This document shows, in pieces, positions 41,525-43,227 of a stretch of 64,000 bases of DNA. The stretch spans positions 1,748,007 through 1,812,006 of the forward strand of contig CBDEUD010000003.1 in assembly GCA_965243115.1 (NCBI GenBank). The letters are read 5' to 3'. Numbering within the stretch: position 1 is the first letter of the stretch; the number at the start of each line of letters is the position of its first letter. Origin of the DNA: Gammaproteobacteria bacterium. GTDB taxonomy: Bacteria; Pseudomonadota; Gammaproteobacteria; Eutrophobiales; Eutrophobiaceae. A model generated the notes under the pieces. The model did no database searches. It was not told the DNA's origin and saw only the letters and a program-made list of their open reading frames with translations. The translations under genes were made by a program, and so were the position numbers.

Positions 41525-41923
41525 ATGAACTTTAATTTGAGCCCGCGCTCGCGGCGACATCTGCAGGGCGTCCACGAGGACCTGGTGCAAGTCGTTGAAC
41601 TGGCCATACGCATCACGGAAGTCGATTTCACCGTGCTGGAAGGTCTGCGCAACACGGAACGGCAGCAACGGCTGTTTGAGAAAAAAGCGACATTACTGAA
41701 TGGTGTTACCAGAAAAAGCAGGCACCAGACCGGACACGCCGTAGACCTGGCAGCATTGATTGACGGTGAGGTACGCTGGGACTGGCCCTTGTACCACAAG
41801 CTTGCCGGTGCCATGAAAAAGGCCGCCGTTCAACTGGAAACGGCGCTTGAATGGGGGGGTGACTGGAAGCGCTTTCCCGACGGACCGCACTTCCAGTTGT
41901 CAAGACGGAAATATCGCGCCTGA
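41525..41923 (+). CDS. peptidase M15 family peptidoglycan hydrolase (endolysin-like)
   Basis: SRHQTGHAVDL and DGPHFQL zinc-ligand motifs of M15 peptidases. 132 aa. Confidence 0.8.
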   Translation: MNFNLSPRSRRHLQGVHEDLVQVVELAIRITEVDFTVLEGLRNTERQQRLFEKKATLLNGVTRKSRHQTGHAVDLAALIDGEVRWDWPLYHKLAGAMKKAAVQLETALEWGGDWKRFPDGPHFQLSRRKYRA

Positions 41924-41948
41924 ACTGTTTGCCGCAGCAGCAAGACAC

Positions 41949-42371
41949 ATGACACAGAGCAGCACAACGTGGTGGATCCAGATTTTTGATTACCTGGCTC
42001 CGCACTGGTGGGGTATTGCCGCTATCGTAGTTGCGCCGTTGACAGGTTATGCGGCCGCGCGCCGCGTCAGGACGCATGCCAGGCGTGAGCCCGGCAACCT
42101 GGCGCTGGCTGCCGTCTCCGGAACGGTGACGTTTGTGCTGTCGCTGCTGATGTGGTGGAAAGGCTATCGCGATATTGAGGGCGCCGTGTTGATCGCAGTC
42201 ATCATGGGCATCGGGTATCCCATCGCGTTTACCGCCATCATGGGAGCGTTCTATAAATGGTGGCCGTGGGGATATGAACGCCTCAGCGGCCGGCCGGCCG
42301 CCACCGGTGAGAAACCGGTGACCGGCGGCAACACCGAGAAGTCCGGCAATACCTTTTCCCCCAGGTGGTAG
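41949..42371 (+). CDS. holin-like membrane protein (3 TM)
   Basis: 140 aa from the internal start MTQSS. Three hydrophobic helices and a charged C-terminus. Immediately follows the endolysin. Confidence 0.5.
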   Translation: MTQSSTTWWIQIFDYLAPHWWGIAAIVVAPLTGYAAARRVRTHARREPGNLALAAVSGTVTFVLSLLMWWKGYRDIEGAVLIAVIMGIGYPIAFTAIMGAFYKWWPWGYERLSGRPAATGEKPVTGGNTEKSGNTFSPRW

Positions 42372-42380
42372 CTCAGCGTC

Positions 42381-42833
42381 ATGCTATACGGTCTGGCACT
42401 GAAGGCAGGAGGATTGTTGCTGCTGTGCGTTGCGGTGTACGCGGGCATCAATACCGCGGGCACGCTCCTGAACAACCATGTAAACGAGTATCTCGGCACC
42501 AGGGAGGCACTGACGGCCAAACAGATTGAACTGGCCGGGATCCGGGCGCACAACGATTACCTGGAGCAACTGGCGGAAGTGACCGGCACGTTCCGGCGGG
42601 AGAAAGACAAACTCATGGAGTCGACTCACCGGTCCTTGCTGGATGCGCGCACGGAACTGTTGCAGGCGCAGAACAGCTGGCGCGTTGAAGATATCCGGCA
42701 GCGCGCCGCCACACCCGCCGGTAATGCCGATCTCAGCGTCCGCGCGGCACGCGCCACTGACCGGAAAAAGAAGCTGCTGGAACAACTGTCCGACTGGGAT
42801 ACGGTATATGAGACGCCTGGCAACCCTGATTAG
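42381..42833 (+). CDS. i-spanin-like protein (Rz-like)
   Basis: N-terminal TM helix, then a long coiled-coil periplasmic domain (150 aa). Confidence 0.55.
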   Translation: MLYGLALKAGGLLLLCVAVYAGINTAGTLLNNHVNEYLGTREALTAKQIELAGIRAHNDYLEQLAEVTGTFRREKDKLMESTHRSLLDARTELLQAQNSWRVEDIRQRAATPAGNADLSVRAARATDRKKKLLEQLSDWDTVYETPGNPD

Positions 42834-43227
42834 CATCCTGCCCCTGCTGGCGGCATGCGGCGGCTTCGGCGCCAGGACAACGGATGTTTCCGTGCATGTA
42901 CAGGACATTCAGATCCCGCAAATTGATTGCCGGCCTTATCCCCGGCCCAGCCTGCTGGAGCTGGGTGATATCGAACCGCAAAGCCGGGCCGACGGCTGGT
43001 TCATCAGCCATGAGGATTACAAGGAGTTGTCCGACATGTGGGATGCAACCATCCTGTACATGAAACAAACCAGGGCAATTGCGAAGTATTTCGCCGATTG
43101 CATCGACAGCTATAACCGCTCTCTGGCGGAGCTTGACGGACGCAGCCCGGAGGCCGCAACGTCTCCCGGGGAAGTGCAACGTGAAGACAGCCGCCTGCCC
43201 CGTATTTTCAGAGACCTTTTCAGATAA
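42808..43227 (+). CDS. o-spanin-like lipoprotein (Rz1-like), start overlaps the i-spanin 3' end
   Basis: Lipobox LLAACGG after signal MRRLATLISILP. Its start codon overlaps the last codons of the i-spanin gene in another frame. Confidence 0.55.
   Translation: MRRLATLISILPLLAACGGFGARTTDVSVHVQDIQIPQIDCRPYPRPSLLELGDIEPQSRADGWFISHEDYKELSDMWDATILYMKQTRAIAKYFADCIDSYNRSLAELDGRSPEAATSPGEVQREDSRLPRIFRDLFR

Follow-up and report, generated by a model that had tools for sequence, protein, structure and literature searches.

Near the 3′ end of an operon encoding an extracellular contractile injection system (eCIS) of the Afp/PVC type, a gammaproteobacterial genome (GenBank assembly GCA_965243115.1, contig CBDEUD010000003.1) carries four small, tightly packed genes that probably make up a working, phage-derived holin–endolysin–spanin cassette, belonging to the late part of the operon and able to free assembled particles by lysing the producer cell. 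Judging from the sequence, we put the probability of this reading at roughly three in four. The window—the whole 64,000-nucleotide stretch of DNA that was analysed, on which coordinates are counted unless another contig is named—holds the cassette at 41525–43227 on the forward (+) strand, in the order M15 peptidase (the putative endolysin), three-transmembrane (three-TM) protein (the holin candidate), i-spanin candidate and o-spanin candidate, the last two being a predicted inner-membrane helical protein and a predicted outer-membrane lipoprotein, respectively.

Once the operon is read through, a soluble M15 endopeptidase would build up in the cytoplasm, and the three-TM protein would collect in the inner membrane and, at some point, open holes in it. 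The peptidase would then get to the murein and cleave its peptide stems between L-Ala and D-Glu; the two spanin candidates, one in the inner and one in the outer membrane, would form a complex spanning the periplasm, which would break the outer membrane after the murein meshwork had gone, so that the cell would burst and the assembled particles would be freed. Hole formation by the three-TM protein, formation of the spanin complex, lysis itself and the link from lysis to release are the steps that we infer, and two of the three membrane proteins have homologues in the lysis cassettes of phages, which supports reading these genes as a lysis cassette. For lysis confined to a producer subpopulation, as had been proposed, the sequence offers no support. 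A bolder version—a self-releasing Afp/PVC-type eCIS in which a module between the cap and cap-adaptor genes would couple the timing of lysis to particle completion, and in which the three-TM protein would represent a new holin family shared by phages and eCIS—is a tentative idea that we consider rather unlikely.

The four open reading frames (ORFs) lie exactly where the original prediction had placed an M15 peptidase, a three-TM protein, a protein with an N-terminal TM segment and a lipoprotein. Its placing of the cassette inside the structural operon, between two Afp16-like genes, is borne out by the eCIS set upstream and by matches to the Pfam family Pvc16_N on either side: cap paralogue A (206 aa; 40838–41458, +; E = 1.8e-26) and cap paralogue B (216 aa; 43239–43889, +; E = 1.6e-24), both Pvc16/Afp16-like and 55% identical to each other. 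By Pfam matches, the host locus is an Afp/PVC-type eCIS whose core set—sheath, tube, VgrG-like spike, gp25, baseplate J, tape measure, AAA ATPase and Pvc16/Afp16 cap—is complete on a single strand between 18163 and 43889.

From cap A to cap B, the gaps across the cassette are 66, 25, 9, −26 and 11 nt, the negative value being an overlap, read from the sequence, between the 3′ end of the i-spanin gene and the 5′ end of the o-spanin gene in the +1 frame (42808–42833, +). We took the three-TM gene from the ATG at 41949; a TTG at 41847, within the peptidase gene, is its start in the mechanical ORF list. A consensus scan inside the cassette found no promoter-like site and no coding-strand terminator-like site, base composition and GC content match those of the neighbouring genes, and the cassette is co-oriented and tightly packed with the eCIS structural genes. 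In our reading, the four genes would be co-transcribed with the late eCIS genes.

The first gene (41525–41923, +) encodes a 132-aa protein that, by its sequence, is a phage-type endolysin with its metal and catalytic motif intact and with no export signal. Its assignment as an M15 (LAS-type) L-Ala-D-Glu endopeptidase and cytoplasmic endolysin draws on Pfam (Peptidase_M15_4, E = 1.8e-12, 48.1 bits against a curated cut-off of 25), on PHROG (phrog_465 endolysin, E = 3e-56) and on relatives of solved structure, the best of which is ChiX of Serratia marcescens (5opz, E = 2e-32), alongside the L-alanyl-D-glutamate endopeptidase 8q2g and the T5 endolysin 2mxz. The motifs SRHxTGHAVD and DGPHFQL are identical in the alignment with ChiX, where H67-x6-D74 and D119-G-P-H122 fall on the same residues; in the M15 family these residues, the zinc-binding H-x6-D and H together with the Asp before the last His, are the metal ligands. 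Alignments of the peptidase with phage endolysins and ChiX begin at residue 3–5 and run to its C-terminal end. It is 62% identical in amino acids to the endolysin of Marinobacter phage PS3 and shares 45% identity with a ChiX-like protein whose chiWXYZ-like locus has the same four-part make-up. Hydropathy reveals no hydrophobic segment anywhere in its 132 residues, hence no TM or signal segment, and the protein would thus be confined to the cytoplasm as long as no holin had opened the membrane. Its pairwise ratio of non-synonymous to synonymous substitution rates (dN/dS) is 0.16–0.22.

The closeness of the peptidase to ChiX, which serves as endopeptidase in the chitinase secretion system of Serratia, and to the ChiX-like protein of a four-part locus favours another function, as do the overlapped spanins that type 10 secretion system cassettes likewise carry (PMC10847046, PMC10847048): the four genes might form such a secretion system, like ChiWXYZ or YenLC, and release soluble cargo—the nearby DUF4157-tagged toxins, for example—or drive vesicles, and not primarily free particles. 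We regard this as improbable, as the genes stand between two eCIS caps with gaps of 11–66 nt, have remained linked to the eCIS through five lineages and sit in this eCIS context in every homologue with a contig that was read. Release by the Yersinia entomophaga type 10 system is, moreover, itself lytic (PMC10847048), so that the two mechanisms overlap and do not compete.

The second gene (41949–42371, +) encodes a 140-aa membrane protein, identified as a holin candidate from hydropathy, charge and a profile search. Three hydrophobic segments (TM1 17–37, TM2 51–69 and TM3 79–101) enclose a loop at 38–50 with a charge of +5/−1 and are followed by a C-terminal tail of 39 residues with a charge of +6/−3. 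The topology check proposed along with the original prediction came out as expected, with a predicted N-out/C-in arrangement like that of class I holins, as judged by hydropathy and the positive-inside rule only. The protein has no similarity to a ChiW-like holin of the lambda family, weak matches of the membrane proteins to CbiM and DUF5547 fell below cut-off and were disregarded, and dN/dS for this gene is 0.20–0.25.

Around ten close homologue clusters were found for the three-TM protein among 5.8e9 proteins, and a profile of these homologues, compared with 1.84e9 representatives, recovered about 20 distant relatives (E = 3e-15 to 1e-3) that are alike in size and layout. The three distant relatives with readable contigs all occur in lysis cassettes of phages, with an Rz-like spanin gene immediately downstream, on contigs that also carry NinB and terminase or a head–tail adaptor and a C1q fibre; the order in each is DUF5675 gene, three-TM relative and PHROG Rz-like spanin. 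Gene neighbourhood assigns the three-TM family to the lysis cassettes of phages. In the window, as in the phage contigs L094 and L095, the three-TM protein is the sole multi-TM protein of its cassette.

A side observation concerns those three phage cassettes, in which DUF5675/phrog_1501 proteins occupy the endolysin position (L091 4130–4519, L092 4268–4741 and L094 2438–2878). The DUF5675 protein has no solved relative by sequence, and our guess is that these proteins may be an unrecognised endolysin family.

The third gene (42381–42833, +) encodes the i-spanin candidate, a 150-aa protein with an N-terminal TM segment at about 5–27, recognised from hydropathy and an AlphaFold2 model (mean pLDDT 81) in which a helix at 3–109 is followed by a break at 110–111 and a second helix at 112–142. 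As modelled, this two-helix layout is that of Rz. The protein is exactly 150 aa long in every lineage and has no periplasmic cysteine, and its partner, the o-spanin candidate, has two that are invariant (C41 and C98); this pairing of none with two is the most frequent one in a published spanin survey (PMC6139136). Searching the i-spanin model against viral structures with Foldseek gave noise, all hits having E > 1, as expected for a long helix.

The fourth gene (42808–43227, +) encodes the o-spanin candidate, a 139-aa lipoprotein assigned to the outer membrane from its lipobox, an AlphaFold2 model and a profile comparison with hhalign. Its N-terminus reads MRRLATLISILPLLAAC, with the lipobox L-A-A-C17 fitting the pattern [LVI][ASTVI][GAS]C, and Cys17, like C41 and C98, is invariant in the homologues; the lipobox check that had been suggested for this protein is answered by these residues. 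The residue at +2 is G, S or T in eight of nine homologues and Asp in P0006, and we predict a signal peptidase II lipobox and, with no Asp at +2, sorting to the outer membrane. The AlphaFold2 model comprises a signal helix, a disordered, proline-containing linker at 17–67 and a single helix at 68–112.

The o-spanin candidate is homologous to a lipoprotein encoded in the phage contig L091, where the ORF overlaps an Rz-like gene, beginning inside it and running beyond it. Alignment with hhalign gave a probability of 96.5% (E = 7e-10, 101 aligned columns), BLASTP gave E = 5e-6 on a common YF..CI..YN..AE helix, and the mature protein scored 44.3 against the L091 lipoprotein, compared with 11.7 ± 2.6 (maximum 22.3) for 100 shuffles. 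Together with the homology of the endolysin and the phage relatives of the three-TM protein, this lipoprotein points to the phage-type lysis cassette that had been predicted at this position. The combined periplasmic length of the spanin pair is about 240 residues, within a survey range of 62–300 (PMC6139136).

That the start of the o-spanin gene overlaps the 3′ end of the i-spanin gene in another frame had been described as the classic Rz/Rz1 arrangement. The overlap and the change of frame stand, and the gene pair belongs, by its layout, not to the ‘classic’ embedded Rz/Rz1 type but to the ‘overlapped’ class, with 26 nt at its short end; an overlap of 8 nt was counted as ‘separated’ in the spanin survey (PMC6139136). 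Another spanin arrangement was seen in passing in the phage contig L092. There the last lysis gene (5696–6160), preceded by one for a 110-aa protein whose TM segment is N-terminal, encodes a lipoprotein that combines the lipobox LISC with a TM segment at its C-terminus and so has, on its sequence, the layout of a unimolecular spanin.

A peptidoglycan peptidase next to a lipoprotein could also be taken as a weapon and its keeper. Peptidoglycan-degrading domains, such as a pesticin domain, have been proposed as eCIS toxins (PMC8213781), and a 132-aa peptidase would fit the tube lumen. On that view, the M15 peptidase would act as an antibacterial payload or as a wall enzyme associated with the spike, and the membrane protein and the lipoprotein would shield the producer, as immunity or handling factors; type VI secretion effectors that attack the wall usually come with immunity proteins that are periplasmic or lipoproteins. 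However, the peptidase has no N-terminal loading extension or DUF4157 domain, unlike the candidate toxins in the window, and the predicted structure of the lipoprotein, a flexible linker with a single helix, is not that of a globular inhibitor. The homology of the lipoprotein to a phage ORF overlapping an Rz-like spanin gene and the occurrence of three-TM relatives in phage lysis cassettes also tell against this explanation, which we consider very improbable.

Conservation of the cassette supports a maintained function. The same order—spike tip, cap A, M15 peptidase, three-TM protein, i-spanin, o-spanin and cap B—was found in all contigs read, which represent five lineages: the window together with the gammaproteobacterial metagenome-assembled genomes L005 and L006; L002–L004; L009; L010; and the more distant L001. 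An i-/o-spanin overlap of 25–26 nt is also present in L001, L002–L004, L009 and L010. Pairwise dN/dS is 0.14–0.28 for all four cassette genes and 0.07–0.20 for the spike tip and caps, with synonymous sites saturated in the deepest comparisons; all four cassette genes are under purifying selection.

A functionless remnant, whether from the ancestral phage or from a prophage inserted at this site, would accord with the descent of eCIS from phage tails and with the scarcity of homologues for the o-spanin, i-spanin and three-TM proteins (8–10 clusters each among the 5.8e9 proteins). We judge this very improbable in view of the dN/dS values in each gene at saturated synonymous divergence between lineages, the intact frames, the invariant catalytic motif, lipobox and cysteines, the lack of other phage genes nearby and the unremarkable base composition.

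Two simpler candidates were rejected. Chance ORFs are at odds with purifying selection and conserved synteny, and a recent prophage insertion with the normal composition, the lack of other phage genes and the presence of orthologues of both caps in every lineage. No homologue of any cassette gene was found in the stored flanks of 80 metagenome eCIS loci with caps 39–77% identical, of which 44 had at least 1.5 kb downstream of the cap and which were not screened for other types of endolysin or lysis gene. This particular cassette is specific to one narrow lineage.

Several observations weigh against our reading of the cassette, most of them concerning the membrane proteins. Pfam, PHROG and NCBIfam hold no curated holin or spanin family for any of the three; for the three-TM protein, the lack of a match to a holin family in these collections extends to 21 relatives. 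TM1 of this protein is weakly hydrophobic (mean Kyte–Doolittle value 1.09), and a tblastn search with two of its distant relatives against 50,697 phage records returned nothing (the window's own protein was not searched in protein mode). In the phage contig L091, an extra small protein with a weak PHROG holin match precedes the cassette; this and the lysA position that the three-TM protein would have in phage P2 suggest that the three-TM family might be an antiholin or accessory. With these points taken into account, we lean towards the three-TM protein being the holin, rather than an antiholin or a second holin.

The spanin candidates attract similar objections. The i-spanin candidate has no similarity to PHROG Rz-like proteins, to the Rz-like proteins of L091 and L094, to P2 LysB or to a ChiY-like protein, and its heptad a/d count—a crude measure—is not above that of shuffles, 1,917 of 2,000 of which scored at least as high, so that the coiled coil of the original prediction gains no support from it; not all i-spanins have one, more than 120 of 528 lacking any that is predicted (PMC6139136). 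Unlike lambda Rz1, the o-spanin candidate is partly helical and long, with 122 residues in the mature protein. Its AlphaFold2 model is of low confidence (pLDDT 57), and tblastn of both spanin candidates against the same 50,697 phage records yielded no match.

The eCIS structural and assembly genes upstream of the cassette (18163–40742, +; Pfam), with gaps of at most about 200 nt, comprise three sheath paralogues (18163–22645, +; Pfam), two gp19-like tubes, CIS_tube, a VgrG-like spike, gp25, baseplate J, CIS_TMP, a fourth sheath-like gene, an AAA ATPase with a WHD domain, and CIS_spike_tip. The fourth sheath-like gene (36645–37988, +; Phage_sheath_1C, E = 6e-9) lies between the tape measure and AAA ATPase genes and stands apart from the three sheath paralogues.

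On the 3′ side, the cassette is followed by cap B, a 52-aa membrane ORF, a weak DUF4157/eCIS_core protein and then a gene for a TonB-dependent receptor, from which it follows that the host has an outer membrane. The 52-aa ORF (43924–44082, +; tblastn, Pfam), directly 3′ of cap B, has a C-terminal TM segment and no Pfam match, and is kept after the cap B gene in L002, L005 and L006 (tblastn E = 1e-6 to 1e-15); it could be an additional lysis-timing or membrane factor.

Cap A and cap B form two separate orthologue groups across the lineages, and the split arrangement is therefore old. Cap B is possibly a cap adaptor, double caps (cap plus cap adaptor) being known structurally from SalCIS, AlgoCIS and tCIS (PMC13266070), and assembly would most likely need both of the genes that flank the cassette. 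Three L001 proteins, of 724 aa (with Big_9), 299 aa and 1,453 aa (2295–4469, 10474–11373 and 15014–19375), begin with a Pvc16_N cap domain, and proteins of 1,309 aa and 1,178 aa are encoded between these cap proteins; caps can thus have very large C-terminal extensions there.

Control of the operon by a terminator and an antiterminator had also been proposed. A promoter-like site upstream of the first sheath gene (18023–18052, +; TTGACT, 18-nt spacer, GATAAT) and a strong, GC-rich hairpin with a 13-bp stem and a run of seven Ts (18103–18132, +), ending 31 nt before that gene, are compatible with the first half of this proposal, and no antiterminator gene was found for the second. The hairpin looks like a leader terminator, in which case expression of the operon would need read-through. 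Rfam and tRNA scans of the window found nothing. An extracytoplasmic function (ECF) sigma factor gene with a FecR-like anti-sigma gene (14230–15866, +) lies upstream of the eCIS, and the TonB-dependent receptor gene (44868–47264) just downstream; the sigma factor/FecR-like pair and the receptor may place the locus under surface-signalling control.

Large ORFs with a recurring DUF4157/eCIS_core-like N-terminal domain surround the eCIS (51615–54380, −; 54520–56067, +; 9534–11864, −; 58330–62175, −; 44106–44795, +; and 48536–50902, +). Fusions among them include a trehalose-6-phosphate-synthase-like domain (Glyco_transf_20, E = 1e-58), a trehalose-phosphatase domain (E = 1e-39) and ankyrin repeats; another encodes a 1,281-aa protein with no Pfam match, and a GH65 phosphorylase gene lies between ORFs of this type. 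By their domain content, these proteins look like eCIS-associated toxins with unusual trehalose-metabolism enzyme domains. Further upstream, two antisense ORFs are each exactly 672 aa long: 6514–8532 (+) encodes a multicopper oxidase, and 6538–8556 (−), which has no family match, is probably a non-coding shadow ORF.

Lysis as a means of release is already known or expected for such systems, and the mechanism itself is ordinary; what is new here is the placement inside the operon and the unannotated holin-like and o-spanin families, for which the cassette provides a functional context. The exit of Afp/PVC-type particles from the producer is still mostly assumed, with reviews writing of ‘presumably lysis’, and a complete in-operon set of endolysin, holin and spanins conserved across lineages offers a clean, directly testable case: if our reading is true, loss of the four genes should trap particles in the cell. 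Transfer of the cassette could yield self-releasing particles for engineered PVC delivery.

Among known systems, the phage contigs L091, L092/L093 and L094/L095 resemble the window in having distant three-TM homologues (E = 3e-15 to 2e-8) directly upstream of an Rz-like i-spanin and an overlapped lipoprotein ORF. They differ from it in that a DUF5675 protein stands at the wall-enzyme position in L091, L092 and L094, where the window has an M15 peptidase, in the i-spanins of L091 and L094, which are not detectably related to the window's, and in the additional small holin-like gene of L091. The cassette of Marinobacter phage PS3 has the same order as ours: endolysin, a protein with two TM segments, a protein with an N-terminal TM segment and an overlapped small ORF. 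In phage lambda, Rz1 is fully embedded in Rz, whereas the pair described here is of the overlapped class, as are lysB and lysC of phage P2.

P2 is also the closest parallel in position, as its lysis cassette Y-K-lysA-lysB-lysC is embedded in the tail operon, between the tail gene X and the tail terminator gene R. In both cases lysis genes are embedded among contractile-tail structural genes—here between two tail-end cap genes—and a multi-TM protein directly precedes an overlapped i-/o-spanin pair, the three-TM protein taking the position of lysA. However, profile comparison detected no similarity to LysA, LysB or LysC, the endolysin here is of the M15 type, there is no separate Y-type holin, and the spanin overlap is 26 nt, compared with 146 nt for P2 lysB/lysC.

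ChiWXYZ of Serratia and YenLC of Y. entomophaga are domesticated, four-gene chromosomal cassettes that export large cargo via lysis of the producer (PMC4259817, PMC10847046, PMC10847048). Like them, the cassette in the window would combine a holin, an M15 L-Ala-D-Glu endopeptidase and overlapped i-/o-spanins; unlike them, it has the endolysin gene first and then the membrane protein. Its holin and spanin candidates are, moreover, unrelated in sequence to ChiW, ChiY and ChiZ, and it lies inside the operon of the cargo machine, whereas YenLC is found elsewhere in the genome. Holin, lysin and spanin genes also belong to the clusters of R-tailocins (PMC10598620). Such pyocin-like particles derive from the tails of P2 or other myophages, have neither an AAA ATPase nor an Afp16-type cap and kill by depolarising the membrane. 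The locus described here resembles tailocins only in having lysis genes of its own; with an AAA ATPase, a CIS tape measure, Pvc16 caps and DUF4157-type proteins, it is not, on gene content, an R-type tailocin.

Closest to the host locus are the Afp/PVC-class eCIS themselves. An early survey described Afp/PVC-like clusters as having no lysis system, as a feature of the class (PMC4122934). A lysis cassette has been noted upstream of afp on pADAP (PMC12961389), and holin–lysin genes flank the Photorhabdus operon PVCpnf, where no lysis linked to pvc expression was observed (PMC6748792). Our search of the literature found no paper on a complete lysis cassette inside an Afp/PVC-type operon between cap genes. 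The locus in the window shares with Afp (pADAP) and PVC an eCIS of the same class with holin and lysin genes near it, a proximity that has been taken to mean lytic release; in those systems, however, the lysis genes lie upstream or flank the locus, whereas here a full four-part cassette, with candidate spanins, is set inside the operon, between the caps.

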